From positions 9,270-73,269 of the forward strand of contig JAGATD010000045.1 of the NCBI GenBank assembly GCA_017621415.1: a DNA stretch of 64,000 bases. Direction: 5' to 3'. This DNA is from Clostridia bacterium. GTDB lineage: Bacteria; Bacillota; Clostridia; Oscillospirales; CAG-272. Below are positions 11,897 to 63,184 of the stretch, in pieces. A model generated the notes under the pieces. It saw only the letters and a program-made list of their open reading frames with translations. It ran no database searches and was not told the origin of the DNA. Numbering within the stretch: position 1 is the stretch's first letter; every line of letters starts with the position of its first letter. The position numbers and the translations under genes are program-made.

Positions 11897-13018
11897 ATGA
11901 TTGTTGCGCTTGAAGAAGCGAAGAGAAAGCTGACGGCTCTTTTTGATGTTGTAAAGGAGCTTGGAAATCAGTTAAGAATAGAGGAAGCTAAAGAGAGGTG
12001 CGCAGAGCTTGAACGTGAGACTCTGGTGCAGGATTTCTGGAACGATGCAGAAAAGTCATCAAAGAAGCTTCAGGAAATAAAGCAGTTAAAGGACAAGTAT
12101 GAGAGCTACGAGGCTCTTGTCTCAAAGCTTGAGGACACGTTTACCCTTTGCGAGATGGCAATTGAGGCAAATGACGAGGACTCTGTTGAGGAGGTTGTTA
12201 CCGAGACCGAGTTTATCGAGACCGAGGCTGAAAAGAAGAGAATTGAGGTTCTGCTTTCGGGTCAATATGACAAAAATAATGCAATTCTCTCGCTGCACCC
12301 GGGTGCGGGCGGTACCGAGGCTCAGGACTGGGCTTCTATGCTTTACCGTATGTATACCCGTTGGGGCGAGGCTCACGGCTTTAATGTTAAGCTTATTGAC
12401 TGGCTTGACGGCGACGAGGCGGGAATTAAGTCTGCTACCATTATGATTGAGGGTATGAATGCTTACGGCTATCTTAAGAGCGAAAACGGTGTTCACCGCC
12501 TTGTAAGAGTTTCGCCATTTGACGCATCGGGCAGACGCCACACCTCCTTTGCCTCTGTTGAGGTTATGCCCGAATTTGATGACGATGATACAATTGTTAT
12601 CCGTGACGAGGATATTGAGGTAACAGCTCATCGTTCCTCGGGTGCGGGCGGTCAGCACATTAACAAGACCGACTCGGCTATTCGTATTGTTCACAAGCCT
12701 ACGGGTATCGTTGTTGGTTGTCAGACCGAGAGAAGCCAGCTTCAGAACAAGGAAACGGCTATGAAAATGCTGAAAGCGAAGCTTATGGAAATTAAGCTCC
12801 GTGAAAAGCTTGACAGAATTGAGGACATTCAGGGCAACAAGGCAAACATTGAATGGGGCAGCCAGATTCGAAGCTATGTATTTATGCCCTACACTCTCGC
12901 TAAGGACACCAGAACAGGCTACGAAGACGGAAACATCGACGCGGTTATGGACGGTGAAATAGACGGATTTATTAACGCATATCTTAAACACATTTCAGCT
13001 AACGGTGAGGAAAAATAA
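11897..13018 (+). CDS. prfB: peptide chain release factor 2 (single uninterrupted frame)
   Basis: SPF tripeptide (VSPFDASGRRHTSF) and GGQ motif (SGAGGQHINKT). The ATG at 11897 has GGAG upstream. Confidence 0.9.
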   Translation: MIVALEEAKRKLTALFDVVKELGNQLRIEEAKERCAELERETLVQDFWNDAEKSSKKLQEIKQLKDKYESYEALVSKLEDTFTLCEMAIEANDEDSVEEVVTETEFIETEAEKKRIEVLLSGQYDKNNAILSLHPGAGGTEAQDWASMLYRMYTRWGEAHGFNVKLIDWLDGDEAGIKSATIMIEGMNAYGYLKSENGVHRLVRVSPFDASGRRHTSFASVEVMPEFDDDDTIVIRDEDIEVTAHRSSGAGGQHINKTDSAIRIVHKPTGIVVGCQTERSQLQNKETAMKMLKAKLMEIKLREKLDRIEDIQGNKANIEWGSQIRSYVFMPYTLAKDTRTGYEDGNIDAVMDGEIDGFINAYLKHISANGEEK

Positions 13019-13947
13019 TGAAAAACGGTCAAATTTGGTACGACACAGACGGAAATGATATACAAGCCCACGGTGGATGTATAATCAAGCATGGCGACAC
13101 CTACTACTGGTACGGCGAGCACAAGGGCGGAGAAACTAAAGTTACCCATCTCGTTTCGGGAGCTGAGGTAGCGAGAGTTGACGTCATTGGTGTTTCCTGT
13201 TATTCTTCAAAAAATCTCAGAGACTGGAAATATGAGGGCCTTGCTCTTGAGGCTGACAAGGATAACGAAAACAGCCCTATCCATACGTCAAAGGTCCTCG
13301 AGCGTCCCAAGGTAATTTATAACGAAAAGACAAACAAGTTTGTTATGTGGTTCCATGCTGAGAGACCCGACTATTCCCTTGCGGGAGTTGGCGTTGCGGT
13401 CTCGGACTCGCCCCTCGGTCCCTTTGAATTTAAGTTTGCAAAGGTGCCAAACAAGCAGGACTCCCGTGATATGACTATTTTCAAGGACAACGACGGCACA
13501 GCCTATCTCTTCCACTCCGCCAACCGCAACAAGACAATGAACATCGCCCGCCTTACTGAGGATTATACCGATGTTGACGGCTTTTATGTCTCGGTGCTGG
13601 AGGACCAGGAGCGCGAGGCCCCTGCCCTCTTCTATAAAGACGGAATGTACTATATGATAAGCTCCGGCTGCACAGGCTGGGCTCCCAATGCGGCGCTCTT
13701 TGCTATTTGCCCCCACCTACTCGGAAAATGGAAGCTTATCGACAATCCCTGCGAGGGTAAATTCGCGAGGCAGACCTTCTTCGGTCAGTCAAGCTACATA
13801 TTTGAGGCTGAGGGCAAGTTTTACCTTATGCTCGACCACTGGAAGCCTGATGATTTAAGAAACTCGGGCTACTCAATACTGCCTATTGAGATTACCGATG
13901 ACAACTGTCTCATCGTTCCCTGGCAGGAAGAGTGGCAGGGCATTTAA
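13018..13947 (+). CDS. GH43 glycoside hydrolase, exo-beta-1,3-galactanase-like (GH43_24-like), cytoplasmic
   Basis: N-terminus WYDTDGNDIQAHGGCIIKHGDTYYWYGEHK and VSCYSSKNLRDW resemble fungal and clostridial 1,3-galactanase GH43 enzymes as I remember them. No signal peptide. TAATG overlap with prfB. Confidence 0.6.
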   Translation: MKNGQIWYDTDGNDIQAHGGCIIKHGDTYYWYGEHKGGETKVTHLVSGAEVARVDVIGVSCYSSKNLRDWKYEGLALEADKDNENSPIHTSKVLERPKVIYNEKTNKFVMWFHAERPDYSLAGVGVAVSDSPLGPFEFKFAKVPNKQDSRDMTIFKDNDGTAYLFHSANRNKTMNIARLTEDYTDVDGFYVSVLEDQEREAPALFYKDGMYYMISSGCTGWAPNAALFAICPHLLGKWKLIDNPCEGKFARQTFFGQSSYIFEAEGKFYLMLDHWKPDDLRNSGYSILPIEITDDNCLIVPWQEEWQGI

Positions 13948-14004
13948 ACTTTTTCTCAAAAACAAAAAAACAGCCGATAGCAACATTTATATATAAAAAA
14001 TCAA

Positions 14005-14040
14005 GGCAGAGAACGTCAAAATTCTCTGCCTTTTTGTTTT
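14005..14040. terminator. bidirectional rho-independent terminator
   Basis: GGCAGAGAA/TTCTCTGCC stem with TTTTTGTTTT on the + side and an A-run upstream, between convergent genes. Confidence 0.75.
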
Positions 14041-14053
14041 GAAAATACTTTTA

Positions 14054-17000
14054 TTATTTTGCTCCGCTCACAAATGCTTCCGGGCTATAGCCAATGTAAA
14101 CATTGTCTATACACATATAATAGTCTACGTCGCCCTGAAGGTAGAACAGAACACGCTCATTACCTACTGTTCCGCAGATGAATTGCATATCACATTGCCA
14201 TACATTGTCAACATACAGCTTAACATCTACAAGAGTTGATGTGTCAGTATCCAGGGAATACTCAAGTCTGTAATTGTGCCACTCGCCTTGTGAAATTGAA
14301 ATATTCTCTCCGCTGACTATAGCATCGCTTCCGATAGTTATAAGCCCATTTGCATCGGTTTTTAAATACAAATCCGCACGGCAAGCTCCGCTTTGCATCA
14401 AAATTCGCATAAATGTTTTGCTATTTGCGATATTTCCAAACGCAGCGTCAAATTCGATAATATTTACAACCCGATCGCTAGGAACACTATCAAAGGTATA
14501 TGTTATGCTCTTTGTCGACGTACCGCCCTTATGGAACCAAACATATTTGCCTTCGGTTACCTCGCATACATCAGGAAGAGAGGTGCTTGGAGCTTGCGCT
14601 CCCAATGCGTTATAGTCAATTTTTTTACCGACCGTTGTTTCATCGTTAAAGTATTTTCCGTTATCCTTTGTTCCCTTTAACTCAGGACCTTTTATTCCCG
14701 GAAGCTCCTCGTAAACGGCATCGATATATCCAAGATAAAGATTATCATATGCAATCCAGGAATCTTCATCGGTATACTGAAGCTGTATTTCAACCCTGCT
14801 GTTATCGTTTTGTGATACATCAAGTCCATCAACCTCAGCAACAAATTTTCCATTGATATAAATCTTAAATCTCACAACCGAATTGTCAAAATTATAGACT
14901 TCTATACGGAGATTATACCAAGTATTAGGCTGAAGAATTGCGTCTTCTGTTGAGTAAACGGTATTACGAAACTCTATCTTGCTTCCGTCAGCCGATGCAT
15001 TCAAATAAAGACCCGCGCGCATACCCAACGAGTAAAACTTAAATAACAGGAAGTTGTTTGCATTGGCGTTTCCAAATGCAACATCCGCCTCAAAAACGGC
15101 ATGTGGGTAAGATAATCCCTCTGAAGCCACATTGTAAGAATATGTTATGTACTCATGCTTTCCGCTCGTATTTCCAAGTCGGTAATAATGAACGTAATTC
15201 TCCGATGTAATGAATGTCTTTGCATCCTTTTTAGCTGAGGTGCTCGGAGCCTTTTCGCCCTGATCGTAATTATATCTCTTTCCTATGGCTTCGCTATTTT
15301 TGTAATAATCACCGCCAATATGAGTTCCCTCTATTGTCGGCAAGCTCTGCGGAATATCCTCAGGCTTAACAGGGAACAACGGAGATTCCGCAACATAAGC
15401 ATCGTTTGTGCGCTCGGCTTTGACATTATCAATATATAATTCGTTATTGCTCTTTCTTGAGTGAGCAATAGCAATCGCTCCTACGGCAAAGTCCACAACA
15501 GAGCCGTCTTCAACCCTTGAGGATGAGCTGATGCCCACATATTCTCCGTTTATGAAAATCTTACCTAAAATATTTAGCTTGCGACTACCGCTAGCATCCT
15601 CCTCGTATATTTTGTAGACCTCAACCGCAACATTAAACCATGTATTAAGCGATATTCCGTCAGCGAGGTTATTATCTCTATCTCCGTCAGGCCCAGCCTT
15701 GTAGTCAGCTATTCTTACATATTTCTCACCGTTTTCTTCGTACATCTGAAAATCAAGCCCGAAACAATCGTATGCCGCTCCCACTGTCCTGCTAAACAGA
15801 AGCTGAACAAATGAGCCGCTGCCACTCTTAACCATAAAATCACCGCTGAATTTATAACAATTTCCGGTGAGAAATGAGTTTGATACGCTTATGAATGTAT
15901 AAAGGGGATTTGCCGCAAAATCGTTATCAGTCGCATAAGTTTTTACGAGCAATGCCTTATCATTATTATCGCTTGGCACAGGATCGGCTACCACGTCGCT
16001 TTGATAGTATTTGTACTTTCCGTCACTTTGGGTTATATCCGTTAATTGGTTTTCAACTGTGTCGGCAGGATATTTAACGACACCGTACTCCTCTTCTCCA
16101 AAACCGTCTTCATAGTTGTCAAACTTTTCGGCATAAACAGGCTGAGGCTCGTTCTTTATTATTGTTCCCATATCCTCAAGTGTTCTTAAGAAATAATAGT
16201 AATCCGCGCTTGTGAACATAGGTACTCTGGTAACACCGAAGGTATCTAACATACTGATTGCTATTCCCGTGGATGAAATGCATGTTGCGTTTACATCACT
16301 CTCAGGGGAGGTCGCGCAAGCCACGAGGGCCTTTTGGGAGGTTAACTGAACCGTATCTCCTCTATATGAGAAAGCACCGTCCTCCTCTTTGTAATCGATT
16401 ATTTTTTCATAAGTGGCAGTCACAAGAGCTTCACCGTTCTCGATAAGCATCGCCCTTACTTCATCGGCTCTTTTACTGCCTTCGGTTTCCTCAATGCAGT
16501 CAAGCAAAAGCTCAAATGTTATCCAGGGATTATATACCGAGCAGACGTGTGTGTCTCCGGAATCCTGAAGAACCACGTCGATAACGCTCTGAATGGCAGC
16601 TTCCGCATTGGGCACCGGAATACCCATATAGTAATAAAAATGAGTGATTTTAAAGAGACCGTTTATCGCATTGTAGGAATTAATGATTTCACCCTGATGT
16701 TCGGTCATATTTGGCTCCCAGAGACCTGTTTCGGGATTTTGATGCTCGTTAAGATAATTTATAACATAGTCAATATATTCTTGACCTGCCATAGTTATCT
16801 GTGTGTGCATTGCCGCAATATCGTTGCCGGCGGTGTAAGAGTCTTTATCAAATCCAAGTTCATCTATATATTTTTCCCAAGCTTCTATACTTTGCAAGAA
16901 ATAAGGAAGATTAGATTTTGAAGCAGCGATCACATATGCAGCTGCAACCACAGCAGAGTTTGACCTGAGATTTCCGGTAATTAAAGAAGCAGGTGACACA

Positions 17001-18010
17001 CCCGGAGCGCCAAGCAAGCCTTTTATTCCATCAGGTGTATTGTAAAGAGGCATCTCACCGAATTTCTCTAGCATCTGTGTTGCCCAACCGAGGTCACGGC
17101 TGCGGCGCGCGTTAATGATATTATCGCCCCACTGAGGATGATAAAAATAACCGTCCTCCGAGCTTTGAAGCCCTATGGCAAAGTTAACCAGCTGCTCTCT
17201 TACAGTAGCAGGAATGCCAATGCCATAACTGCCTCCATACGACGAAAGCATTCCGGACTCGCTAAGGAAATTCAACACCTGCACAGTAGACTCGATGTCA
17301 GGTAAAAAGCCTACATTGTTTCTGCCGGAATTGGAAAAATAGAAGCCTCCTATATCAGGGTCATAAAGATTTGCCATCCATATGTATATTTCTTCGGTAT
17401 AAAGGGAGTACAGCTTCTTGATTGCCTCTATCGTTCCGTCATCAAGAGTTGCCTCTAGTTTTTCAAAGGCCTTATCTCTGCTTTCTTCTCTTATGGCTCT
17501 GATATGCTCAGAAAGATCAAACTGATTTGATGCTATCACACCGTCGCCAAATATCCTACTGCTTTTGTTACAGTAATTAGCAACAAAATAATCTATTGCC
17601 TCATCTGCTGCCATCGGGCTGTCGTATGCTATAGCTATCGAACCGCCTTCGCCAGCAATGCACCAGCCGCTGATGTCTTCTTTACCTTCAAGCATACTTT
17701 CAAGTTTTTGGTATGCCTTCTGCGACATTTCGCGCTCAGACCTTCCGATAACAATCTCGTGCTCATGGGAAACAGATGCATCGTAAAACACCGACACCTG
17801 TCTTCCCGTAAGGGTACTTATAGAAGAAATCAGTTCGGACGCATCTATGTCATCCTCTTCAGCAAAGACCACGGTGGTATTCGAGTCAGGAGACCACAGA
17901 GCATTTTCCACCTTCGGTGTAGTATCATTCTTGTCGATATCTTTTACTCTGCACGAGGCAAACAAAGAGAGTGCCGTAAAAAGCAAAATTGCGACTAATA
18001 TTTTCTTCAT
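14054..18010 (-). CDS. giant lipoprotein A: N-terminal alpha/beta domain + alpha/alpha-toroid-like domain + 3 LamG/ConA-like modules
   Basis: Lipobox LSLFAS-C. The toroid motif set spans roughly aa 170-640. Three modules end in the KIFINGEYV...LYIDNVKAE, KIYINGKFV...AYDNLYLGY and KLYVDNVWQ...CIDNVYIGY signatures. Confidence 0.85.
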   Translation of the reverse strand: MKKILVAILLFTALSLFASCRVKDIDKNDTTPKVENALWSPDSNTTVVFAEEDDIDASELISSISTLTGRQVSVFYDASVSHEHEIVIGRSEREMSQKAYQKLESMLEGKEDISGWCIAGEGGSIAIAYDSPMAADEAIDYFVANYCNKSSRIFGDGVIASNQFDLSEHIRAIREESRDKAFEKLEATLDDGTIEAIKKLYSLYTEEIYIWMANLYDPDIGGFYFSNSGRNNVGFLPDIESTVQVLNFLSESGMLSSYGGSYGIGIPATVREQLVNFAIGLQSSEDGYFYHPQWGDNIINARRSRDLGWATQMLEKFGEMPLYNTPDGIKGLLGAPGVSPASLITGNLRSNSAVVAAAYVIAASKSNLPYFLQSIEAWEKYIDELGFDKDSYTAGNDIAAMHTQITMAGQEYIDYVINYLNEHQNPETGLWEPNMTEHQGEIINSYNAINGLFKITHFYYYMGIPVPNAEAAIQSVIDVVLQDSGDTHVCSVYNPWITFELLLDCIEETEGSKRADEVRAMLIENGEALVTATYEKIIDYKEEDGAFSYRGDTVQLTSQKALVACATSPESDVNATCISSTGIAISMLDTFGVTRVPMFTSADYYYFLRTLEDMGTIIKNEPQPVYAEKFDNYEDGFGEEEYGVVKYPADTVENQLTDITQSDGKYKYYQSDVVADPVPSDNNDKALLVKTYATDNDFAANPLYTFISVSNSFLTGNCYKFSGDFMVKSGSGSFVQLLFSRTVGAAYDCFGLDFQMYEENGEKYVRIADYKAGPDGDRDNNLADGISLNTWFNVAVEVYKIYEEDASGSRKLNILGKIFINGEYVGISSSSRVEDGSVVDFAVGAIAIAHSRKSNNELYIDNVKAERTNDAYVAESPLFPVKPEDIPQSLPTIEGTHIGGDYYKNSEAIGKRYNYDQGEKAPSTSAKKDAKTFITSENYVHYYRLGNTSGKHEYITYSYNVASEGLSYPHAVFEADVAFGNANANNFLLFKFYSLGMRAGLYLNASADGSKIEFRNTVYSTEDAILQPNTWYNLRIEVYNFDNSVVRFKIYINGKFVAEVDGLDVSQNDNSRVEIQLQYTDEDSWIAYDNLYLGYIDAVYEELPGIKGPELKGTKDNGKYFNDETTVGKKIDYNALGAQAPSTSLPDVCEVTEGKYVWFHKGGTSTKSITYTFDSVPSDRVVNIIEFDAAFGNIANSKTFMRILMQSGACRADLYLKTDANGLITIGSDAIVSGENISISQGEWHNYRLEYSLDTDTSTLVDVKLYVDNVWQCDMQFICGTVGNERVLFYLQGDVDYYMCIDNVYIGYSPEAFVSGAK

Positions 18011-18011
18011 A

Positions 18012-19430
18012 TTACTGCATCTCCCTTATTTTATTCGGATTTATTGCATCATCAAACCAATCGGGCTTTACGTATATCTTTTGTGTTTGTATCGCATTAT
18101 CGATAATATCAAAAAATATTTTGGCATCCTTATCACAGAAAATGGGAATTCTGCGAATACCGAGAACCTTACATAAATTAGAAGTGACACCCGTGGAACA
18201 AATAGCGGAGGCATTCACATCTCCCTCATCAAGTCCAAGCCCCACCGGCGCCTTTTGCGATAAGCGAGAACGAGGCTCAGGATTATATGAAAACGATCCG
18301 TCTGCACGCTTGCAAGTCAAAACCTTTTCGCGTGTTACCCGTATCAGGTCCGCAGCGCGCTCTAAGATTATTTTCTGCAGCTTATGCGCCTCGAACTCAT
18401 CTCCGTGCAATCTCATATTTTCAAGCACGTTACTCATAGTTGCAAAGGGGTTGTAGAACTGACAGCAAAAGACTATTGGTTCATTGGAAAGCGCCACCGT
18501 TATAGCGCTCTTGATAGCCTTGTCAGCATTTGGCATACATACACCGAGATTGCTGTAAAGAAGACTAAGCTTCATAAGACCGTTTACCGAAGCGTAATTA
18601 ACCTGTGGCTCCCAAAGACCGTTGTCACTGCGCTGACAGTCTGCCAGCCACTGGAAAAGCGTGTTAATAAATTCAGGTCCTGCAGCTCCTATCTGTATTG
18701 CCTGCGATGAAATCATGTTGGCCGACCAGTAGGATTTGGTCTTCATATCAAATGATGCCAAATAATTTTTCCACTCGTTTATATCCTGAAGATATTTGGG
18801 AAGCAACGCGGAGCTTGAACCGTCATCGTTTTTGTCAATGGGAGTCGGATAATAGGGCTTATCCCCAAACCGTGAAATCATATCTGTTGCCCATCTGAGA
18901 TCTCTTGAACGCCTTGGAGTAATTATATTTTTACCCCATTGAGGATGATAAAAGAATCCGTCCTCGGGATCCTGAAGCCCCTTAGCGAATTTTAGTAAGG
19001 ATTCTCGCATACTGCCAGGAACGGCCTGAGCATAGGTCTTTCCCATTCCTGATATAAGACCTGAGCTTTCGGTGAAGCGTAGTATCTGTACCGTTGACTC
19101 TATGTCAGGCAAAAAGGCATCGCAATCCCTACCTGATGAGGAGAAATAAAAACCTCCTATTTTCGGATCCCAGAGAGTTGCCATCCATACATATAAACGC
19201 TCGTCATAAATATCGTAGAGCCTCTCAAGCTCCACTGCCGCATCCTTGCCGATAATCGGAACAATCTCTTTGTAGTACCTGCTTCGCATATCTTCTCGTG
19301 AAATGATTGCTTCCACAATACGTTCCTTGGTTACTTCGTTTCTACCACTCATATTTATAAAATCCATCCTTTCACGACTTAAATGTACTTTCTTTGAAAT
19401 GCAATCGTTACAATTAATAATATTATCCAT
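18012..19430 (-). CDS. signal-less alpha/alpha-toroid-like protein A (paralog of the giant lipoprotein toroid domain)
   Basis: Motifs LWDPKIGGFYFS, LPDIESTVQ, DGFFYHPQWG, RRSRDLRWA, NGLWEP, DGSFSY and EGDVNAS. No hydrophobic N-terminus. The stop lies 1 nt before the next ATG. The exact start is uncertain. Confidence 0.8.
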   Translation of the reverse strand: MDNIINCNDCISKKVHLSRERMDFINMSGRNEVTKERIVEAIISREDMRSRYYKEIVPIIGKDAAVELERLYDIYDERLYVWMATLWDPKIGGFYFSSSGRDCDAFLPDIESTVQILRFTESSGLISGMGKTYAQAVPGSMRESLLKFAKGLQDPEDGFFYHPQWGKNIITPRRSRDLRWATDMISRFGDKPYYPTPIDKNDDGSSSALLPKYLQDINEWKNYLASFDMKTKSYWSANMISSQAIQIGAAGPEFINTLFQWLADCQRSDNGLWEPQVNYASVNGLMKLSLLYSNLGVCMPNADKAIKSAITVALSNEPIVFCCQFYNPFATMSNVLENMRLHGDEFEAHKLQKIILERAADLIRVTREKVLTCKRADGSFSYNPEPRSRLSQKAPVGLGLDEGDVNASAICSTGVTSNLCKVLGIRRIPIFCDKDAKIFFDIIDNAIQTQKIYVKPDWFDDAINPNKIREMQ

Positions 19431-19450
19431 TTTGATATCCCAAATACCTT

Positions 19451-19491
19451 TTCAGCCCCGCGACACCGCAATTCTGCGCCGCGAGGCTGAA
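19451..19491 (-). other. GC-rich intergenic stem-loop
   Basis: TTCAGCCCCGCG/CGCGAGGCTGAA is a 12-bp stem with one mismatch, between the 496-aa and 472-aa genes. No clear T-tract. Confidence 0.5.
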
Positions 19492-19501
19492 GTGCATACG
19501 T

Positions 19502-20992
19502 TTACTGTGCGTTAGTTGCTACAGCCTCAGTACTGTAGCCAAGATAAATGTTGTCAAGCGAAAGCTTGGAGCTCAAGCCCTTGTTAGCGTAAATAAGCGC
19601 TCTGTAGCTACTGTTTGTTTCGGTAGATGTTCCGTTGGTGTAGAAGTCGCACTGCCACTCGTTATCTATATAAAGCTTAACGAGTATCAGCTTTGCATCT
19701 GCGATGTAATTATACTCAAAGCGGAAGTTATGCCACTCGCCCTGCTTAACCGAAATGTTTTCACCTGCCAGAATGGTATGGTTTGAGCTGTGAATAGAGA
19801 TTTTCCCATCAGAGCCCGAAAGATATACCGAGCTTCTCGCACCCTGGACATCACCGCCGTTTATCTTATCGGCAAGCATAATGTAACCGAAGGTTCCGTC
19901 AACGCCCTCAAACATAGCATCAAACTCCATAATAAAGGATTTATCTGTGGCTGATGGAGTATTAAACGTAAGTGTTGTGTTTAGGTTAGAGGTTATACTC
20001 GAAAAATCAGCATAAGAGTATTTGTCATCAGCGCCTACTATTTCACCTACCGGAGCAAGGCTGCCTGTTTTAAACTGGATAGCACTTTCACCGTTATCAA
20101 AGCTTATTTCCTTACCTGTATAATTACCTGAGTAATACTTACCCGAGCCCTTTGTGTAGGTGGTAGGAACAAATACGCTTGCAGAGCAAACCATATTTCC
20201 GGTAACGGGAATCTCAACTCCGTTCTCCGCCTCGGTAACCATGCCGTTGCCGTTCTCATCATAGGTGGTGATGCTCCATGTGCAGGTCGCACCTGCGGCA
20301 AGCTCACCTGAATATTTAAGGGTCACGGTATCTTGAGTGCTTATAACACTTTCAAGTCCGGTATCGTCTATAGTGCCGCCATCAACGACTATCATGTGAT
20401 AATCGGTGATAAGAGTCTCATTTTTGCCGCCGTCAAAGTTATCAATGGCTATCTGCGCCTTTTCGGCATAATCTATGAGTGAAAGATAAAGCTCTTTATA
20501 AACGTATCCTCTCTGTGTAGGATTCGTATTTCTGATGTAGTTATCCTTAAAGAGCTTGGTATAAAGGAACTGCATTACACTGTATGTTTCTACATCCACA
20601 GGACGGGTATCTCCTGTGTAAGCAACCGCATATACGGTCTCGGTGAAATCCTGAGCGGGCATTCCCTCGGTTGCGTAAATAGGATATTCCGCAGATGTAT
20701 CGTCTTCATTTTCTACGGTTAAGGTTTCTGCACGCTTTAACGCATTTTTCCATTCACCGCTCTCACCGATCTTATACTCAACCTTGAGGTCGGATATAGC
20801 GGCTTCTCCTGATGATATATCGATTTTAGGGGCATATGCTATTGCTATTCTGTCATTGTGTATTATGGTTTGCGCATAAAAATCAACCTTACTGTCGTTC
20901 TCTGCCGATGCGGTAATGCCTATCACCGCTCCAACAAGAAGAGCAAACGAAAGCACTGCCAAAAAAATTTTTTTGAGATTGTTTGTTTTCAT
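19502..20992 (-). CDS. Sec-secreted beta-sandwich protein A with C-terminal LamG-like module
   Basis: Signal peptide ...GITASA/END. Shares the YSV.(Q/E)(F/Y)...(K/R)L(F/Y) region with 28059-29567 and 61635-63050. The C-terminus (QGEWHNFRFEY...KLYIDNEWQCD...LDNIYLGYS) resembles the last module of giant A. Confidence 0.8.
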   Translation of the reverse strand: MKTNNLKKIFLAVLSFALLVGAVIGITASAENDSKVDFYAQTIIHNDRIAIAYAPKIDISSGEAAISDLKVEYKIGESGEWKNALKRAETLTVENEDDTSAEYPIYATEGMPAQDFTETVYAVAYTGDTRPVDVETYSVMQFLYTKLFKDNYIRNTNPTQRGYVYKELYLSLIDYAEKAQIAIDNFDGGKNETLITDYHMIVVDGGTIDDTGLESVISTQDTVTLKYSGELAAGATCTWSITTYDENGNGMVTEAENGVEIPVTGNMVCSASVFVPTTYTKGSGKYYSGNYTGKEISFDNGESAIQFKTGSLAPVGEIVGADDKYSYADFSSITSNLNTTLTFNTPSATDKSFIMEFDAMFEGVDGTFGYIMLADKINGGDVQGARSSVYLSGSDGKISIHSSNHTILAGENISVKQGEWHNFRFEYNYIADAKLILVKLYIDNEWQCDFYTNGTSTETNSSYRALIYANKGLSSKLSLDNIYLGYSTEAVATNAQ

Positions 20993-24877: not shown

Positions 24878-25000
24878 TTTACTGTCTCCTTCAATATGCC
24901 GGCTAATGGAACCCGCATAGTATTTCATTCTATTATTTTAACACAGTTTTATAGAAAATACAATAGCAAATTTAAAATTCGAAATTCGGAATTCTAAATC

Positions 25001-25030
25001 CGAGAAAAAAGGCTTCCCCTTGGGGAAGTC
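25001..25030 (-). terminator. rho-independent terminator after the MFS gene
   Basis: Minus strand reads GGACTTCCCCAAGGGGAAGCC followed by TTTTTTCTC. Confidence 0.7.
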
Positions 25031-25120
25031 CTTTCATGTTACGGTGGCTTTCCCACAAAAATCTCGTCAAAAACTTTACAGAGGGGAAATGTTAAAGTAT
25101 ATTCACAGAATATTAATGAG

Positions 25121-26419
25121 TCACATCTCACTGCTTGAAGACAGGGTAAGGTCGCTTTTTACACTTTTCATCTTTCTTACAACTTGGTTAATATAGACAT
25201 AAGCGAGAATAACAACTATCAGCGAAGCAAAAGAGAGGACCTGTTGGGCATACAAGTTAACTCCGAAAATTGTTACTCCCCCACTTTGCTGAATTTGCTC
25301 CAGCATATATCCCGAAACAAGCGCTGAGCCAAAGCCTGCGAAGCCTCCCACGGCGGCTTTAACACCGATTGCCACAGTTCTGTCCTCGGGGCTGACAAAG
25401 TCATAAACCAGGTTTAAGGAGCCGCTATTCATTCCCGCCATAGCAAATCCGTAGAAGCAGGAGTATATTACATAAAACCATTTTGTCCAACCGGGAGCTG
25501 TGAATATTACTCCGACGAATGCAATGCCCTGCATAACCAGACAGAGCATTATAGAATATGTAAAGGACTTTTTGTCGGCTATTTTACCCATTAATGGTGA
25601 TAAAATAAGTCTCGAAATCAAGCCCAGCGTAGTAATAATAGTTATTACTGTAAAGCTCATAGACAGCTCCTGGCGCAAATATGAGGGATAAAAGGGTGTT
25701 GACAGCCCGAGAGATATCTGCCAGAGTATGTCTATCACCATTATTTTAGCAATACTTTTGTTCTTTAAAAGTGATTTTGCCGAATCCTTTACAGATATTT
25801 TTTCACTTTCTACTTCGTCCTCGTGGCATACAGCCAATGACACCGTATGCATAACCGTCATTATTATCAATGCAACTAAGCATATTGTATAATACTCTGC
25901 TGTGGGGTTGCCTAAGGAATCACGGTATGTATCGGCAATATTGCCAAGAAGCATTGAAACTATCACTCCGCCTGCCAGCGAAATCATTTCCTTTACCGCT
26001 GTAAATCTTCCTCTTTTTTCATCATCAACCGAGCGCATAAGCCAAACCATTCTGGCAGGCAGTACGGCATTTGTAACAAGGTTACCTGCTACAAGAAAAA
26101 TAACGAACAAAAGCGATTTTGCTCCCGATGAAAAGTTAGATATAGGCAAAAGATAAACCGCAATAAATGCAATTTGACTGAAGAGCATGGCAAAAGTTAC
26201 GGTTCTCTTTGCTTTTCTTCCGGAAAGAAAAAGGGCAAAAATCTGCGCTCCGCAGGAAAGGGTAGCTACATTGTTGATTATACCCTGAGTTGCATCATTA
26301 AATCCTAACGCAGCTAAAAGATAGCCCAAAAAGGTGCTGGTAACAAATATTGATATAAAGTAGTTTAGAGACTCTTCCGCCACAAAAGCGACACGCATTA
26401 TTTTTCTTTTATTTTCCAT
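25121..26419 (-). CDS. MFS transporter (glycoside/oligosaccharide-type suspected)
   Basis: 432 aa with about 12 predicted hydrophobic helices and a central cytoplasmic loop. The position suggests co-transcription with the upstream hydrolase. Confidence 0.7.
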   Translation of the reverse strand: MENKRKIMRVAFVAEESLNYFISIFVTSTFLGYLLAALGFNDATQGIINNVATLSCGAQIFALFLSGRKAKRTVTFAMLFSQIAFIAVYLLPISNFSSGAKSLLFVIFLVAGNLVTNAVLPARMVWLMRSVDDEKRGRFTAVKEMISLAGGVIVSMLLGNIADTYRDSLGNPTAEYYTICLVALIIMTVMHTVSLAVCHEDEVESEKISVKDSAKSLLKNKSIAKIMVIDILWQISLGLSTPFYPSYLRQELSMSFTVITIITTLGLISRLILSPLMGKIADKKSFTYSIMLCLVMQGIAFVGVIFTAPGWTKWFYVIYSCFYGFAMAGMNSGSLNLVYDFVSPEDRTVAIGVKAAVGGFAGFGSALVSGYMLEQIQQSGGVTIFGVNLYAQQVLSFASLIVVILAYVYINQVVRKMKSVKSDLTLSSSSEM

Positions 26420-26562
26420 TTGAAAGCTCCGTTATTTCTCTTTAGCTTACTAAAAAAAGCAGGCTGAAAGCTGTAAGACATATATGTACCCCAAAAGCCT
26501 TTGGCTTTTGGGGTTTAGGGCAAAGCGGACTCTGCCCTGAAATTTCTATCATTTTTTGTTTT

Positions 26563-27960
26563 TTAGAACACAACTCTTATTTCTACACAAGAGTGAGCCT
26601 TAACCGTATAGGTAGAGTTCTTTATTACCTCGCCTACTGCTGTGTAGAGGTACTCGTCATCTGTAACTATTACCTCGCCGGAGTTTACATCAGCGCCTGT
26701 AACATCAAGCTCTAGGGTCAGCGGCTGGTCTTTATCGTTTGCTATGAGGATTATGCCCTTTTTGTCATTTCTTGCGGCAAGGGTATAAACGTCCTTGTTG
26801 TCGGAGCAGTTTTCTACCTCACATCCGAGCTTGTAAGCCTGACCGAAGGATTTGAATGCATAGTAGGTTTTATAGGGCTCGAATGTATCGGGATTAAACA
26901 TACCGTGATAAACACTTATGCCTATTTCTCCTATATAGTAACAGAGAACAGATGTCTCGGACTTCTGCATTCCAAGCATTACGGCAAGGTTTCTCGCAGA
27001 ATATTCTGCCTCAGAGCGCAGCTTTACCTTACGGAAGCAGGTATTCCACTCCTCCAAGATATCGGGAATATGCTCAAAGCCGTATTTTTTAAGAAGCGCT
27101 CTACAATACTTTGCTCTGTCAACAATATTTTCTACAAGGGCTATGTAGCCGTGCCAGCAGAAGAAATCAAGGGGACAGTCATGCTCCTTAACATACTGTA
27201 AGAAGCGGTGTACAAAATCTATTCTGTAAGCCCAAACATGTTCCTTGTTTGCATACTGCGGGTCAACGCCTTTTAGCTCGGGGTCCCAGATTTCATGCTC
27301 CTTAAAGCCCATTGCGCCGGGGCCGCCAAGCATTATGCTGTCGCCGAAGCACTTCTTTATATGCTTTGAGGATATTTCGTAAAACTTAAAGAATTCTTCA
27401 CGTCCGCCGTGCCAGGTCTGCGCAATATTATTAGGGTCAAAGTCAACGTCTGCCTCATTCCATATTGTCCAGTATTTTATTCCGTAGTGATATCCGTCTG
27501 CCCAACCCTCATTATAGTGGCGGATTATATGCTCGCATATTTCTGCCCACTTCTGAAAATCCTTTGGGGGATAGACGTGATAAGCCTTAATGTTTGCCCA
27601 GTTCTCAATGGTAATTCCAAGGCGGTAGATAGGCTCTACTCCATAGTCTCGAAGAGTCTTTATAAGTACGTCGGTATGAGCGAAGTCATAGGATGCGGGG
27701 TCATTTACGTCAGCATCAAAGTTGCGGAAGATGTTAGGAATATCAACAAATCTGCCGCCGCCAAAATAGCCTGCCACATCGTGAAATCTGGAATAAGGAA
27801 TTGCCGCTTCATCAAGATAGTGGAAAAGCGCAGGTCCAACACTGGATTCTCCGCCAAGAATAGGAGCGGAGCAAATTCCGTGCATAGGTTTAATTTTGTT
27901 TCCTGTTTTTTTAGTAAAATCTGCTGTTATTTTAACTGTTTCAAGTTTTACGGCGCTCAT
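26563..27960 (-). CDS. clan GH-A-like (beta/alpha)8 glycoside hydrolase (GH39-like), cytoplasmic
   Basis: YWTIWNEAD resembles the clan GH-A acid/base NE motif. There is a C-terminal beta-sandwich tail and no signal peptide. The family cannot be resolved by eye. Confidence 0.55.
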   Translation of the reverse strand: MSAVKLETVKITADFTKKTGNKIKPMHGICSAPILGGESSVGPALFHYLDEAAIPYSRFHDVAGYFGGGRFVDIPNIFRNFDADVNDPASYDFAHTDVLIKTLRDYGVEPIYRLGITIENWANIKAYHVYPPKDFQKWAEICEHIIRHYNEGWADGYHYGIKYWTIWNEADVDFDPNNIAQTWHGGREEFFKFYEISSKHIKKCFGDSIMLGGPGAMGFKEHEIWDPELKGVDPQYANKEHVWAYRIDFVHRFLQYVKEHDCPLDFFCWHGYIALVENIVDRAKYCRALLKKYGFEHIPDILEEWNTCFRKVKLRSEAEYSARNLAVMLGMQKSETSVLCYYIGEIGISVYHGMFNPDTFEPYKTYYAFKSFGQAYKLGCEVENCSDNKDVYTLAARNDKKGIILIANDKDQPLTLELDVTGADVNSGEVIVTDDEYLYTAVGEVIKNSTYTVKAHSCVEIRVVF

Positions 27961-28006
27961 GGCACGTCTCCTTTGAATTTTAGAAAGAAATTTTGCTTTT
28001 TTTATC

Positions 28007-28033
28007 GGGTTACCGCATAAGGCGCGGTAACCC
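28007..28033 (-). other. 10-bp GC-rich intergenic stem-loop
   Basis: GGGTTACCGC-ataaggc-GCGGTAACCC lies between the secreted-protein gene and the hydrolase gene. On the mRNA strand it is followed by an A-run, so it is not a canonical terminator. Confidence 0.6.
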
Positions 28034-28058
28034 TGTTTTAGTTTTTACTTATTTTGAA

Positions 28059-28751
28059 TTACTCTGCAGGCTCTGCAACGTAAGTCTTGTTTATTGCCTT
28101 GAAAACGGTGTTGTCGAAATAAATGGAAACCGAGTAAACATCCCATTTTGTAATAAAAGCACCGAAATAATTCATCTCACTTGTAGGAGCAAAATTGCTG
28201 ATAGTGGCAAAGCAAGCACCGCCAATATAATATTTTACAACATTCGCATCGGTGTAATACTCCATAGTTAGGGTGTACCATTTGTTTGCATCGATACGAG
28301 TACCGTCGGCAAGAGAATAGTGAGAAAATGCCCCGTCAACAGCTTTTGCCGTAATAGCTATTTCCGCATTTCTTATGGGATTTTGGTTTTGGTTGTTATA
28401 GTTACTAGACAAGAATAAATAAATACCCGTTTTATCTGCCGTAACACTCGTAGAACTAAGCATTATGTCCGTTTCAAATACAATACAATTTCCTGTAGCA
28501 TCAGTCTGCTTTTTGAAGTACATATCGGTAGAATTGACATTTTGGTGCTTATACATAAGAAGATATTTATCATCACCGTCGGTAATCACCTGAGTACGGC
28601 TACCGGTAGCAGTGGCTGCTGTACTTCCTTTAGAAGCATTATAATATACAAAATCATCCATACTATAGAGACTCGACACTCCGCTTACTGCGCTATATCC
28701 GATTGATGATTGGAAATTGTTTCCGCCGAGAAGCTCGTAGTAATTGCCTGC
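28059..28751 (-). repeat. coding module copy 1 of 3 (others at 31154-31850 and 31893-32530)
   Basis: Shared runs include LLMYKHQNV, DMYFKKQ.D..GNCIVFETDI.LSSTSVTADKTGIYLFL and WYTLTMEYYTD. Long near-identical nucleotide stretches occur, e.g. around 28440-28500 against 31545-31620. Confidence 0.85.
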
Positions 28752-29567
28752 TTCTGCCTTTGCGGGAGTGATTATAGTTGTGCCGGCTAAGTTAAAGCTT
28801 TCACCGTTGTTTACTGTTCTGGAGGCTGTTCCCTCCGCTGTAGTTTCTTCAACATTCCACATTGCTACGCTCTCGTCTGTCGAGTTAGGAGTAATGGTTG
28901 ATTCGAGAGCATACATACCCGAGGAGTACTTGCCGTCGATGGTTGCGTTACCGTCAATGTAAACATAAGCTGTTTCGCTGAGGGTATTTTCAACATTATT
29001 ATTTTCGTTTGTATCTGTGTTAAGTATTGTCTGAAGATAACCCGCTGACTCAAGAAGAGATGCGTAGAAGTTATCCTGAAGCTCGGTTGCATCATCAACG
29101 TAGAGGCGCTTGTTGAGATACTCTGCAACACTGTATCTAACAACAGGGCTGTAAATCTCGGTGTCTACAATATGAGCCTTTGCGTACACTGTTTCGCCGA
29201 TTCTGGCAAGGGGGAAGCCTGCGGTAAAGAAAGCGGGATATGTAACATCATCTGATGTATCTTCTGTGCCCTTGTTATCGGTGTAGCCCTTTTCATAGGT
29301 TGCGCCCTTGTATGCGGTTGCTTCGGGGTTAACGGAGGGGTCCTCAAGGTAGTAGAGGAGCTCAATTACGGCGCCCTCGCCTGCCTTTGTGTGGTCAACC
29401 GCAAACATAACCTTTATAACATCGTTATAGGCTACGTTCTTTAAGGTAATTTCTACCGAGGGAGTCTCGGAGGTTTCGGCGCTAGCGGAAATTCCTACCG
29501 CTGCGGCTATTATAACAACCAGCGCTAAAGAGAGAGTTATGAGCTTTAAGACTTTTTTGTTTTTCAT
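28059..29567 (-). CDS. Sec-secreted beta-sandwich protein B with C-terminal LamG-like module
   Basis: Signal peptide ...GISASA/ETS and the shared YSVAEYLNKRLY region. The C-terminal ~230 aa closely match modules 5 and 6 of giant B. Confidence 0.8.
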   Translation of the reverse strand: MKNKKVLKLITLSLALVVIIAAAVGISASAETSETPSVEITLKNVAYNDVIKVMFAVDHTKAGEGAVIELLYYLEDPSVNPEATAYKGATYEKGYTDNKGTEDTSDDVTYPAFFTAGFPLARIGETVYAKAHIVDTEIYSPVVRYSVAEYLNKRLYVDDATELQDNFYASLLESAGYLQTILNTDTNENNNVENTLSETAYVYIDGNATIDGKYSSGMYALESTITPNSTDESVAMWNVEETTAEGTASRTVNNGESFNLAGTTIITPAKAEAGNYYELLGGNNFQSSIGYSAVSGVSSLYSMDDFVYYNASKGSTAATATGSRTQVITDGDDKYLLMYKHQNVNSTDMYFKKQTDATGNCIVFETDIMLSSTSVTADKTGIYLFLSSNYNNQNQNPIRNAEIAITAKAVDGAFSHYSLADGTRIDANKWYTLTMEYYTDANVVKYYIGGACFATISNFAPTSEMNYFGAFITKWDVYSVSIYFDNTVFKAINKTYVAEPAE

Positions 29568-29598
29568 TTTTATTTTTTCCTTTCAGTTAAATAATAAT

Positions 29599-29727
29599 TT
29601 AAGTGGTCCACGAATCGTCAACAACACCGCCATCTTCCTCAAAAGGCGTTGACGTTTGGATAACATCCTTGTTATCCATAAAGATAAGTTGAAGCTCTGC
29701 TTTTTTGTAGATTAACTTATTATCCAT
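29599..29727 (-). CDS. conserved micro-ORF B (42 aa), below the ORF-track cutoff
   Basis: Hand translation gives MDNKLIYKKAELQLIFMDNKDVIQTSTPFEEDGGVVDDSWTT*. AAAGGAAAG sits 2 nt before the ATG. It lies 31 nt upstream of the secreted-protein gene. Confidence 0.6.
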   Translation of the reverse strand: MDNKLIYKKAELQLIFMDNKDVIQTSTPFEEDGGVVDDSWTT

Positions 29728-29773
29728 AGCTTTCCTTTCTGCGGAATTTTTCCGCGTTATTTTATTTTTGCTT

Positions 29774-31063
29774 TTATTTTGTGGGTCTTTTTAAGGCTGC
29801 GAGAAATTTGTCATATGCATTCGGAGAGAAGAGAGGAATTTTGTAATCCTCAAGCTCAAGGGCGCGGAACATAAACGCAACAGTTCCCGTAGAGCAAATG
29901 CCGTTTGCGTTTATATCACCCTCGTTTGTTCCGAAGATTGCCACAGGCATTCCCTGGCTTGTACCTGAGGTGTTATTTTCGCAATAGGAGAAGCAGCCCT
30001 CCTTTTTCTTAAAGATTTTCACCTTTCTCGCGGTTGACCTTATTGCCTCGGGAGCTGCAAGAAGAAGCTCCTTCGAAATCTCGTCTGCCTTAGCTTTTCC
30101 CTCATCTCCGCCAAAATTGCGCAAATCGAGGAGTATGTTATGTATAGAGAACCAGTTGTTGTAGGTGGTACAGACGTGTATGGGGTGGTCGGTGCTGTTT
30201 ATGCACTCAAGGCAGGTTCTTACCGCCTTTTCAACATGGGGTACGGAATGACCCACTGACCTATAGAAGCAGGAAATTTTAAGAAATGCGTTTATTGAAT
30301 CATATCCGCCTGTTTTTCCCCAAAGTCCTGTCTCGGGGTCCTGGATGCTGTTAAGGAATTTTACCGCAACGTCGCCAAGGCCTGCCGCTTTTACCTGGGT
30401 TGCCTGAGCCGCCATACGGTTACCCGACCAGTACTCTCTGTGGTCCCAGTCATAGGATTTAAGATGCTCCATAAAGGCTTCCTCAGAGAGGAGATAATCG
30501 GGGAGAACATTTTCCGCTGTATCGTTACCGACCTTTTCCTCTTTGGTTTTTCTCAGCCTCTCGTTTGCTGTCGGGTACGGGAGCTTGAAGTTAAACTTAT
30601 CTGCCATATCCTCAGCCCACATAAGGTCTCTGCCCCGTCTTGCAAGCTTGGTATCGGTGTATTCCTTGCCCCACTGGGGGTGATAGAAATATCCTGTCTC
30701 GGGGTCCTCGCAGGAGCAGATAAACTCTGCCATTTTGTCTCTCATCCATGAGGGGACTTCATCAAAGGAGCTTATCATTTTTGAGCTTTGTAAAAAGTTT
30801 GTTGCCTGCTCGGTGCTCTCGATATCGGGGAGGAGCTTACTTACCCTTCCATCGTACTCTATCTCTTCGTTATCTCTTGCCGATTCGGAAAAATAGAAGC
30901 CGCCTATGTCGGGGTCATAAAGGCTCGCCAGCCACTCAACGGCACCGTCATCAAAGTTTGAATAAAGCTCCTTGATAGCTGCGACAACCTCTCTGCCGTC
31001 TCCGCCGCGTCTGTTTACTTCGGCTTCAAGGGCTTGCCATTTTTCCTCATAAAAATTGTTCAT
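29774..31063 (-). CDS. signal-less alpha/alpha-toroid-like protein B
   Basis: Same motif set (LYDPDIGGFYFS, LPDIESTEQ, GYFYHPQWG, RRGRDLMWA, GLWGK, EGCFSY, EGDINAN). The start was set to the ATG at 31063 (MNNFYEEKWQAL, GAAGGAAAT upstream) by analogy with the 416-aa paralog. Confidence 0.8.
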   Translation of the reverse strand: MNNFYEEKWQALEAEVNRRGGDGREVVAAIKELYSNFDDGAVEWLASLYDPDIGGFYFSESARDNEEIEYDGRVSKLLPDIESTEQATNFLQSSKMISSFDEVPSWMRDKMAEFICSCEDPETGYFYHPQWGKEYTDTKLARRGRDLMWAEDMADKFNFKLPYPTANERLRKTKEEKVGNDTAENVLPDYLLSEEAFMEHLKSYDWDHREYWSGNRMAAQATQVKAAGLGDVAVKFLNSIQDPETGLWGKTGGYDSINAFLKISCFYRSVGHSVPHVEKAVRTCLECINSTDHPIHVCTTYNNWFSIHNILLDLRNFGGDEGKAKADEISKELLLAAPEAIRSTARKVKIFKKKEGCFSYCENNTSGTSQGMPVAIFGTNEGDINANGICSTGTVAFMFRALELEDYKIPLFSPNAYDKFLAALKRPTK

Positions 31064-31116
31064 TGGTATTTCCTTCTTTCTTTTTGCGATCATTTTCGCA
31101 CTTGACCGCGGTGGTG

Positions 31117-31142
31117 CCTGCCGTGCCGTATGACACGGCAGG
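31117..31142 (-). other. 9-bp GC-rich intergenic stem-loop
   Basis: CCTGCCGTG/CACGGCAGG in the gap after the giant B stop codon. Confidence 0.5.
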
Positions 31143-31153
31143 CTTAAATTTAA

Positions 31154-37213: not shown

Positions 37214-37284
37214 TTTTTGTCTCCTTTGTCTGTCTCTTATGAGGTTGCCTTAATGCAACACGGCTATCTTTTACTCTTTCAGCT

Positions 37285-38112: not shown

Positions 38113-38399
38113 AAGCTCTACCTCCGCTTTTATTGTACATTATCGACAAACCGATGTAAATATCTTTTTGGATTTAAGGAACATTGTACGGATTTTGAGG
38201 AAAAGATGCACGTCTGGTGCTTTTAAATTTTAAATAATTTAAATTTTTTTACTACACCTGTCAAAATATGCTCTCGGACTTTAAGACCGTCGGCAGGAAA
38301 ATCCCCAAAACGAAAAAAGAAATATTGACTTTTCGGACAAACGATGATACAATATATATTGGTTTAATGTTTGTATTTACAGAAGGGCGGGTGCGCTTT

Positions 38400-61574: not shown

Positions 61575-61610
61575 AGCAAAAAAACACCCGACAGCCGAAA
61601 GCTGTCGGGT
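61575..61610 (-). terminator. rho-independent terminator after the 471-aa gene
   Basis: Minus strand reads ACCCGACAGC-tttcg-GCTGTCGGGT followed by GTTTTTTTGC. Confidence 0.8.
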
Positions 61611-61634
61611 AAGCATAAAGCAAGGTTGTATTTA

Positions 61635-63146: not shown

Positions 63147-63184
63147 GCAAAAAACACCCGACAGACCGTGAAGCCTGTCGGGTG
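63147..63184 (-). terminator. rho-independent terminator after the partial paralog
   Basis: Minus strand reads CACCCGACAG-loop-CTGTCGGGTG followed by TTTTTTGCGG. The stem sequence is nearly identical to the terminator at 61575-61610. Confidence 0.8.

Follow-up and report, generated by a model that had tools for sequence, protein, structure and literature searches.

Two described arrangements are among the closest to the genes reported here. In the Bacteroides starch system, the surface lipoprotein SusG and the periplasmic SusA both belong to family GH13; endo-cleavage takes place outside and trimming inside. In the Gram-positive polysaccharide utilization loci (gpPULs) of Roseburia/Eubacterium rectale, one or more degrading enzymes, a system for carbohydrate transport, and a regulator of transcription (AraC-type in these loci) are encoded together, with a few signal-peptide-bearing, multimodular, cell-attached enzymes outside and most glycosidases in the cytoplasm (PMC5320581). 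We analyzed a 64,000-nucleotide stretch of contig JAGATD010000045.1 from an uncultured gut Clostridia bacterium (here called the window), in which each of three loci carries two genes for the same predicted alpha/alpha toroid domain, one encoding a predicted surface lipoprotein (the long form) and one a leaderless protein (the short form), together with a gene for a secreted partner, S. As with SusG and SusA, one locus would supply a lipid-anchored outer and a soluble inner copy of one family; here, however, the cell is monoderm, the inner copy would be cytoplasmic, the toroid is not a TIM barrel, and there is no SusC/D-type transporter. Locus 2 resembles a gpPUL in having an enzyme, a transporter, and an AraC-type regulator, whereas loci 1 and 3 have neither transporter nor regulator, the toroid/S core falls in no known carbohydrate-active enzyme (CAZyme) or binding-protein family, and this three-gene core recurs at least 6 to 8 times per genome.

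The original prediction, made from the letters of the window, had called the pairing of a surface copy with an intracellular copy unusual. That was overstated: among Gram-positive gut bacteria, a surface enzyme with a cytoplasmic paralog is a normal way of catabolizing glycans, and, judged by analogy with described systems, outside/inside use of one enzyme family is known. What is new is the unannotated family itself, the architecture that joins a GH20b-like N-terminal domain (N-domain), a toroid, and ConA-like repeats, and the recurring three-gene core. The reading we favor, with slightly more assurance than doubt, is that the toroid serves as the catalytic domain in a family of carbohydrate-active enzymes that is so far unclassified, a glycoside hydrolase (GH) or a lyase, with a division of labor between outside and inside.

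Paired toroid genes, their conservation, and their fold

The open reading frame (ORF) listing of the window gave three loci, all on the minus strand, each with one long and one short toroid gene. Toroid limits are envelopes of a toroid hidden Markov model (HMM).

18012–19430, minus: short1, stand-alone leaderless toroid protein of locus 1, read from sequence as a 472-amino-acid (aa) ORF
14054–18010, minus: LONG1, 1,318-aa lipoprotein, with signal peptide MKKILVAILLFTALSLFAS-C20 and lipobox LFAS-C20
16124–17509, minus: toroid of LONG1, residues 168 to 629
29774–31093, minus: short2, stand-alone toroid protein of locus 2 (439-aa ORF), with an alternative start MNNFYEEKWQAL at 31063
31154–37213, minus: LONG2, 2,019-aa lipoprotein with lipobox ...SSLLFS-C21, an N-domain, and six ConA-like modules
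35210–36637, minus: toroid of LONG2, residues 193 to 668
60047–61297, minus: short3, stand-alone toroid protein of locus 3 (416 aa), 24 nucleotides upstream of LONG3
54791–60022, minus: LONG3, 1,743-aa lipoprotein with lipobox ...LTLAS-C25 and five ConA-like modules
58127–59455, minus: toroid of LONG3, residues 190 to 632

The claim that every locus encodes the toroid twice held for the window, where all three loci have a lipoprotein and an adjacent leaderless protein of 416 to 472 aa, and failed for the family as a whole, in which only 45 of 94 short forms adjoin a long form. Spacing is tight in two of the loci: the stop codon of short1 lies 1 nucleotide before the start codon of LONG1, and 24 nucleotides separate short3 from LONG3. 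The predicted split between a lipoprotein signal on one copy and none on the other was confirmed, with lipoboxes LFAS-C20, LLFS-C21, and LAS-C25 in the long forms and hydrophilic N termini in the short forms. Lipidation was predicted from a basic n-region, a hydrophobic h-region, and a closing lipobox with [LVI][ASTVI][GAS]-C as the pattern, and by these marks the window long forms are predicted lipoproteins. In the 76 family loci, 59 of 63 long forms match the pattern; in three more a lipobox is evident on reading, and the last is an N-terminally truncated ORF. Hydropathy separates the classes in the same way: on a Kyte-Doolittle 15-residue mean, the short-form maximum is 1.28 and the long-form median is 2.84, and a hydrophobic N terminus occurs in none of the short forms.

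The start given for short1, MDNIINCNDC, is probably 26 codons early, while the point it served stands, since no signal peptide follows from either start. Both the deposited annotation and the family alignment begin short1 at MSGRNEV, giving a 446-aa protein (18012–19352) that matches at 100% a deposited "hypothetical protein" of a Clostridia metagenome-assembled genome (MAG); the true start is probably at 19352.

Aligning the six window copies, as had been proposed, yielded 59 invariant columns, with 33 to 38% identity to short1; within the three loci the toroid domain is 33 to 46% identical between the lipoprotein and the leaderless protein. The shared charged motifs PDIEST, YHPQW, RRxRD, and E-G/S-D-x-N were largely recovered, the exception being LONG2, which has ADLETT in place of PDIEST. 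RRxRD is present in all six copies, but in the wider family its second Arg falls below 85%, so that the motif there reads R-x-x-R-D. By profile comparison, chance resemblance among the toroid copies is excluded, as the listed family members score E-values of 1e-112 to 1e-238. In all long forms, a 30- to 45-residue Ser/Ala/Val-rich loop is inserted between a YxTP motif and the next helix (for example, LONG1 residues ∼325 to 370); the same loop is short in the stand-alone forms.

A profile search against 1.84 billion representatives (50% identity clusters) with a cutoff of E ≤ 1e-3 returned 1,369 proteins or clusters, 961 of which reach 1e-30. They come in two architectures, stand-alone proteins of 390 to 480 aa and proteins of 800 to 2700 aa with the toroid at about residues 170 to 650, and all named matches are "hypothetical proteins" from Clostridia MAGs. 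A genome scan with one genome per species gave 231 matches, of which 74 loci were kept; these lie in uncultured Clostridia, Eubacteriales, or Oscillospiraceae MAGs, about 20 in number, whose labels point mostly to the gut of animals or ruminants (roe deer, goat, water deer), and from each of several genomes 6 to 8 of the kept loci stem, which makes at least 6 to 8 loci per genome. Two further architectures were seen: two-toroid tandem proteins of ∼805 to 814 aa without a signal peptide (P0027, P0028, P0032, P0038, P0039, and P0042; at locus L059, 4855–7296), and some long forms of ∼950 to 985 aa (P0283, P0190, P0288, and P0292) that bear Listeria-Bacteroides repeats (PF09479).

Forms were counted in 76 loci (94 short and 63 long), and conservation was scored over 93 short and 63 long forms in a family-HMM alignment. 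The stand-alone copies show no decay, as had been suggested: in both short and long forms, about 20 polar residues are each conserved at 89 to 100%, namely D83, E85, S86, T87, Q89, Y135, H136, Q138, W139, R147, R150, D151, K261, N301, K343, S365, Q366, E376, D378, and N380 (446-aa numbering). No Cys reaches 85% in either class.

The predicted structure of short1 provides a frame for these positions. Its AlphaFold2 model, built on a 70-sequence alignment, has a mean predicted local distance difference test score (pLDDT) of 96.3 and a predicted template modeling score of 0.94; it is all helical, with 21 helices and three beta-hairpins inserted before alternate helices. In agreement with the toroid fold first proposed, Foldseek matches in the PDB were exclusively alpha/alpha toroid proteins, all of them weak (template modeling [TM] scores of ∼0.3 to 0.4). 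The top match was squalene-hopene cyclase 8pak (E 5.6e-4; TM 0.29 to 0.35), followed by a GH76 alpha-mannanase (E 6e-3; TM 0.34 to 0.43; 11% identity) and, with weaker E-values and lower TM scores, by GH105, GH88, drimenyl diphosphate synthase, the alpha-2-macroglobulin thioester domain, transcobalamin, GH15, GH9, and GH127. Taken together, GH76, GH88, and GH105 span E-values of 6e-3 to 6e-2 and TM scores of 0.30 to 0.43.

The active-site funnel of alpha/alpha toroid enzymes is built by the inner helices at their N-terminal ends. The conserved polar residues of the family map to the three hairpins and to the N-terminal ends of helices 84–96, 145–161, 253–268, 297–316, and 379–397, and from these positions they likely surround one opening of the modeled barrel. 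Among them, the invariant carboxylates D83/E85 and E376/D378 are candidate catalytic acids, and the invariant basic residues H136, R147, R150, K261, and K343 suggest an anionic substrate, such as a glycan containing uronic acid and hexosamine.

The history of the two forms was read from their distances. The nearest neighbor lies in the same class for 83 of 93 short and 59 of 63 long forms, and yet adjacent partners resemble each other in sequence more than expected: in 15 of 45 pairs, the short form has its own partner among the three closest of the 63 long forms. Short-form distances track those of their partners (mirror-tree r = 0.75, a correlation to which shared species history contributes; Mantel test, 0 of 2,000 permutations). 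Such a pattern agrees with an old divergence of short from long forms, followed by the duplication of whole loci. The 49 of 94 short forms with no adjacent long form (the remaining 45 are directly adjacent) are solitary or stand in tandem arrays of up to six. Six-gene arrays without a lipoprotein partner were found at L045 (307–8219), L057 (5828–14142), and L059 (3576–12533); in two of these genomes, L045 and L059, the array is flanked by hprK on one side and a SipL/LysM gene on the other. Since they have no long partner, such arrays fit diversified enzymes rather than proteins dedicated to a lipoprotein.

Accessory domains, secreted partners, and gene neighborhoods

Around the toroid genes, the window holds the following further features.

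About residues 21 to 165 of LONG1, minus: GH20b-like N-domain, its fold modeled on LONG3
59447–59953, minus: GH20b-like N-domain of LONG3, residues 24 to 192 (predicted fold)
14057–16063, minus: three ConA/LamG-like modules of LONG1, residues 650 to 1318 (module HMM)
19502–20992, minus: S1, 496-aa secreted partner of locus 1, with a cleavable signal peptide (ITASA/E) and a family-specific N-terminal region
Residues 291 to 496 of S1, minus: single ConA-like module (module HMM)
28059–29567, minus: S2, 502-aa secreted partner of locus 2, with one ConA-like module
61635–63050, minus: S3, 471-aa secreted partner of locus 3
63200–64000, minus: second S-like gene, running off the window end
13018–13947, plus: GH43-family gene, 309 aa, without a signal peptide (Glyco_hydro_43, E 1.9e-20), convergent with locus 1
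37285–38112, minus: AraC-type regulator, with PocR as its sensory domain, heading locus 2
26563–27960, minus: GH39-like glycoside hydrolase, 465 aa, without a signal peptide (Glyco_hydro_39, E 1e-14)
25121–26419, minus: major facilitator superfamily (MFS) transporter, 432 aa, last gene of locus 2 (MFS_1, E 4.5e-26; MFS_2 sugar transport, E 3e-11)
14003–14032: terminator-like hairpin, bidirectional, at the close of both locus 1 and the GH43 gene that converges on it
61411–61382, minus: promoter-like site before short3
61611–61585, minus: strong terminator-like hairpin after S3
63184–63155, minus: terminator hairpin after the second S-like gene, near-identical to that of S3

The N-domain of the long forms (∼150 residues) was modeled with 44 sequences, at a pLDDT of 88.6. 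Its own profile search found only seven fragments, and the alignment was built from a search with the first 640 residues of LONG3. Its best Foldseek matches (E 4e-4 to 2e-2; TMq 0.36 to 0.52) were nearly all to accessory domains that glycoside hydrolases carry at the N terminus: in GH20, BT0459 (E 4e-4), a Paenibacillus hexosaminidase, and Akkermansia enzymes; in GH84, CpGH84A and CpGH84D; in GH67, an alpha-glucuronidase; and in GH115, a match with TMq 0.52. The likeness to Glyco_hydro_20b, an alpha/beta sandwich, is one of predicted fold only, as the N-domain sequence had no Pfam match and hhalign made no connection to the N-terminal region of neighboring DUF4838 proteins (probability 0.3). 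In GH20, GH84, GH67, and GH115, such an accessory domain precedes a catalytic (beta/alpha)8 barrel. The long forms likewise place a domain of this fold directly N-terminal to the presumed catalytic domain, which here is instead a toroid.

ConA/LamG-like modules number three in LONG1, six in LONG2, five in LONG3, and one in each S protein. One in LONG3 matches Laminin_G_3 above the Pfam cutoff (31.4 bits against 27.6; E 2.4e-7), and the rest were linked to it through a family HMM built in this analysis. The S proteins, a third conserved gene of each window locus that the original prediction had not included, consist of a cleavable signal peptide, a family-specific N-terminal region, and one such module. 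Among the genes that accompany toroid genes on the same strand, S-like ones are the most frequent (35 in 33 of the 76 loci). For S2 and S1, the module is closest to a long-form module of the same locus, in both cases the last one (67% identity for S2, 28059–29567 versus 31154–31774; 37% for S1, 19502–20120 versus 14054–14644); for S3, two LONG3 modules are about equally close (27 to 28%). These identities suggest that the module is exchanged or coevolves within a locus.

Neighboring genes in the window are the AraC/PocR regulator, the GH39-like and GH43 enzymes, which both lack a signal peptide, and the MFS transporter. Of the components that define a gpPUL, a degrading enzyme is present in locus 2 (GH39-like) and beside locus 1 (GH43), with none recognized in locus 3 within the window; a transporter is found in locus 2 only (MFS, of the MFS_2 sugar type; ABC components were not systematically screened); and a regulator occurs in locus 2 (AraC/PocR), with none beside loci 1 or 3. 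Only locus 2 has all three. Across the 76 loci, at least 29 have a CAZyme-type neighbor and 25 an AraC relative. Same-strand mates other than S include GH20C (8), GH106-like (4), GH2, DUF4838, GH39-like, GH20, GH88, heparinase II/III-like, DUF4832, and SGNH esterase genes. Neighbors that recur or share the strand are cytoplasmic GH20C, with 15 genes in 12 loci; GH2 of short, beta-glucuronidase size and Gfo/Idh/MocA oxidoreductases, in 8 loci each; the window's GH43 cluster c24 and ceramidase-like genes, in 3 loci each; and DUF4838, GH106-like, and GNAT genes; single cases are GH20, GH88, heparinase II/III-like, DUF4832, and SGNH esterase. The recurring GH20, GH2, GH39-like, GH88, and heparinase-like neighbors point tentatively to glycans that contain uronic acid and hexosamine, and, together with GH20C, they suggest host-type or acidic microbial glycans.

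In locus 3, short3 and LONG3 look like a two-gene operon, a reading based on the terminator-like hairpin after S3 and the promoter-like site before short3. The stems of the two S-gene hairpins (61585–61611 and 63155–63184) are nearly identical (CACCCGACAG...CTGTCGGGTG, then a T-run), and, standing as they do behind consecutive S-like genes, they suggest that an S gene was duplicated in tandem with its terminator. The stretch between S1 and short1 (19431–19501) contains a GC-rich hairpin (CAGCCTCGCG...CGCGGGGCTG) that has no T-run, and a similar palindrome lies between LONG2 and short2 (31116–31143); both could be processing, stabilizing, or attenuating elements.

Three more ENA metagenome assemblies contain near-identical contigs. 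Locus 2 in its entirety, from AraC/PocR to MFS (∼12.7 kb; window 25000–38200), is absent from contigs L001 to L003, which are otherwise 99.4% identical and of the same species; in them, a 111-aa PocR fragment directly adjoins the methionyl-tRNA synthetase gene. The downstream part of locus 2 (S2, GH39-like, and MFS) is present on a fourth contig, L004, up to the contig end. Locus 2 is a strain-level presence/absence polymorphism. The LONG1 ortholog (window 14054–18010) is split into two ORFs in L002 (11343–15336) and L004 (11343–15298); an indel region within the toroid goes with one split and a 1-bp deletion with the other, and the split genes in these two metagenome assemblies may reflect real inactivation or assembly error.

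Proposed function and competing explanations

Under the favored reading of the toroid as a catalytic domain, the long form would be exported, lipidated on its lipobox Cys, and tethered at the cell surface, where its three to six ConA/LamG-like modules would hold a polysaccharide that the toroid, behind its GH20b-like accessory domain, would cut. The secreted S protein, with a like module, would help capture the same glycan. Import of the fragments would fall to the MFS transporter in locus 2 and, elsewhere, to transporters not linked to the locus, and the leaderless short form would apply the same bond chemistry to the imported oligosaccharides. Cytoplasmic exo-enzymes would complete the breakdown (GH39-like and GH43 here; GH20C, GH2, GH88, heparinase-like, and GH106-like in sister loci), and AraC/PocR regulators would turn the locus on.

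Several points weigh against this proposal. The carriers are all uncultured, and the toroid is known here from sequence and models. Its fold matches are weak (TM 0.3 to 0.4), with a terpene cyclase and not a glycosidase at the top, and the clustering of invariant residues at a cavity was deduced from a secondary-structure map. No Pfam or NCBIfam match to the toroid was found in the window proteins or in 70 family members scanned; profile searches of PDB sequences with 6 and with 70 sequences gave no match; and hhalign of the family profile gave probabilities of 0.15 against a sister-locus GH88 and 0.10 against a heparinase II/III-like protein. Most loci are without a transporter, the MFS gene occurring in 1 of 76, the window's own, with no relative in the other 75. 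Many triads of short, long, and S genes stand amid unrelated genes (L005, for example), and the ∼20 invariant polar residues are more uniform than would be expected if each locus targeted a different glycan.

The family has no annotation and lies a long way from every solved structure. The lack of a sequence relative in the PDB argues against membership in CAZy families with a solved structure, and literature searches for a described toroid family of this kind returned nothing relevant. With GH76, GH88, and GH105 the toroid shares its fold class and conserved carboxylates at helix N termini; it differs in lacking sequence or profile similarity and in its three conserved beta-hairpins, and a GH20b-like N-domain such as that of the long form is not known in those families. 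It was not placed in GH76, a family with an adjacent catalytic Asp-Asp, to which it has a likeness of fold only, nor, given the profile probabilities above, among the GH88/GH105 unsaturated uronyl hydrolases or the heparinase II/III-like lyases (Hepar_II_III_N toroid). The absence of a conserved Cys led us to reject an alpha-2-macroglobulin/complement thioester (CxEQ) assignment (Foldseek E 0.045 to 0.12) and a LanC-like one. Apart from the Laminin_G_3 match, the toroid, long, and S proteins yielded no usable match in Pfam, NCBIfam, PADLOC, or PHROGs scans, and the loci are flanked by housekeeping genes, so a defense or phage origin was rejected; weak matches to TBP-TOTE, HpiC1, and COPA were treated as noise.

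The alternative that survives best, although we consider it unlikely, is that the toroid is a noncatalytic ligand binder, with a surface copy for capture of a glycan or other nutrient in the manner of SusD or transcobalamin and a cytoplasmic copy that, by binding this ligand after import, acts as sensor, store, or hand-over protein. Pure binders do exist among alpha/alpha toroids, and transcobalamin and intrinsic factor were among the fold matches (E 0.06 to 0.8), yet these matches are weaker (TM 0.24 to 0.26) than those to GH76 or the cyclase. The occurrence of one invariant pocket beside very different glycosidases would suit recognition of one common moiety, and the triad often has no adjacent enzyme gene. 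Paired invariant carboxylates accompanied by His, Tyr, Arg, and Lys, at ∼20 positions in all, are by contrast typical of catalytic sites; the GH20b-like N-domain is known ahead of catalytic domains; the lipoprotein already has three to six ConA-like binding modules; and the AraC/PocR regulator bears a sensor domain of its own.

We regard as improbable that the toroid is an enzyme of the terpenoid-cyclase/prenyltransferase type, acting on a lipid, isoprenoid, or glycolipid at the membrane's outer face and in the cytoplasm. Besides the top Foldseek match to squalene-hopene cyclase and the further match to drimenyl diphosphate synthase, a scan of the 70 members at E-values up to 10 found sub-threshold matches to Prenyltrans in 4 members (best E 0.0036) and to SQHop_cyclase_C in 2. 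The family and squalene-hopene cyclase share repeated aromatic-Gly hairpins before inner helices and an acidic motif at an inner-helix N terminus: the hairpin motifs GGFY, DGYFY, NGLW, and DGSFSY resemble the DGGW/F repeats of the superfamily, and D-I-E-S-T occupies the place of DxDD(T) in class II cyclases. Ceramidase-like genes adjoin three loci. However, no match reached a Pfam threshold (for Prenyltrans and SQHop_cyclase_C/N, the window proteins had none and the members fell below gathering score), the TM scores are low, DxDD itself, the general-acid motif of class II cyclases, is absent, D-I-E-S-T standing in its place, and the neighbors are overwhelmingly glycosidases, not isoprenoid genes. 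Unlike in terpene cyclases, the family stands in a glycan-catabolic context with one copy predicted to be extracellular and fused to lectin-like modules, and the fusion to a GH-type N-domain and ConA-like modules points to soluble glycans.

Least probable of all is a short form dedicated to its lipoprotein as chaperone, export or assembly factor, or decoy against enzyme activity before export: tight spacing in loci 1 and 3, the 45 directly adjoining pairs, and their codiversification would suit it, but whole-locus duplication explains the codiversification equally, a chaperone or decoy needs no 92 to 100% retention of every putative catalytic residue, 49 short forms stand without an adjacent long form, six-gene arrays occur with no lipoprotein at all, and some solitary short forms lie in operons with cytoplasmic GH88, GH20C, or heparinase-like enzymes.

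Beyond the catalytic reading of the toroid, we put forward more tentatively that short, long, and S genes may form the core of an unrecognized glycan utilization system of uncultured gut Clostridia, which would answer in Gram-positive cells to the SusC/D signature pair, recurring at least 6 to 8 times per genome beside variable glycosidases. Its toroid, joined to a GH20b-like N-domain in a new architecture, would be a new family of glycoside hydrolases or lyases for acidic glycans that contain hexosamine. Even if the toroid only binds a ligand, a matched pair of surface and cytoplasmic binders would itself be unusual. If it is catalytic, it would define a new carbohydrate-active enzyme family of ∼1,369 clusters at 50% identity, none of them annotated. 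The degradation of host-type and acidic microbial glycans by animal-gut Firmicutes is poorly mapped, and CAZyme-based annotation now overlooks loci of this kind, since every one of their core genes is labeled "hypothetical"; if the proposal is true, the three genes would provide a signature for spotting glycan utilization loci in uncultured gut Clostridia.

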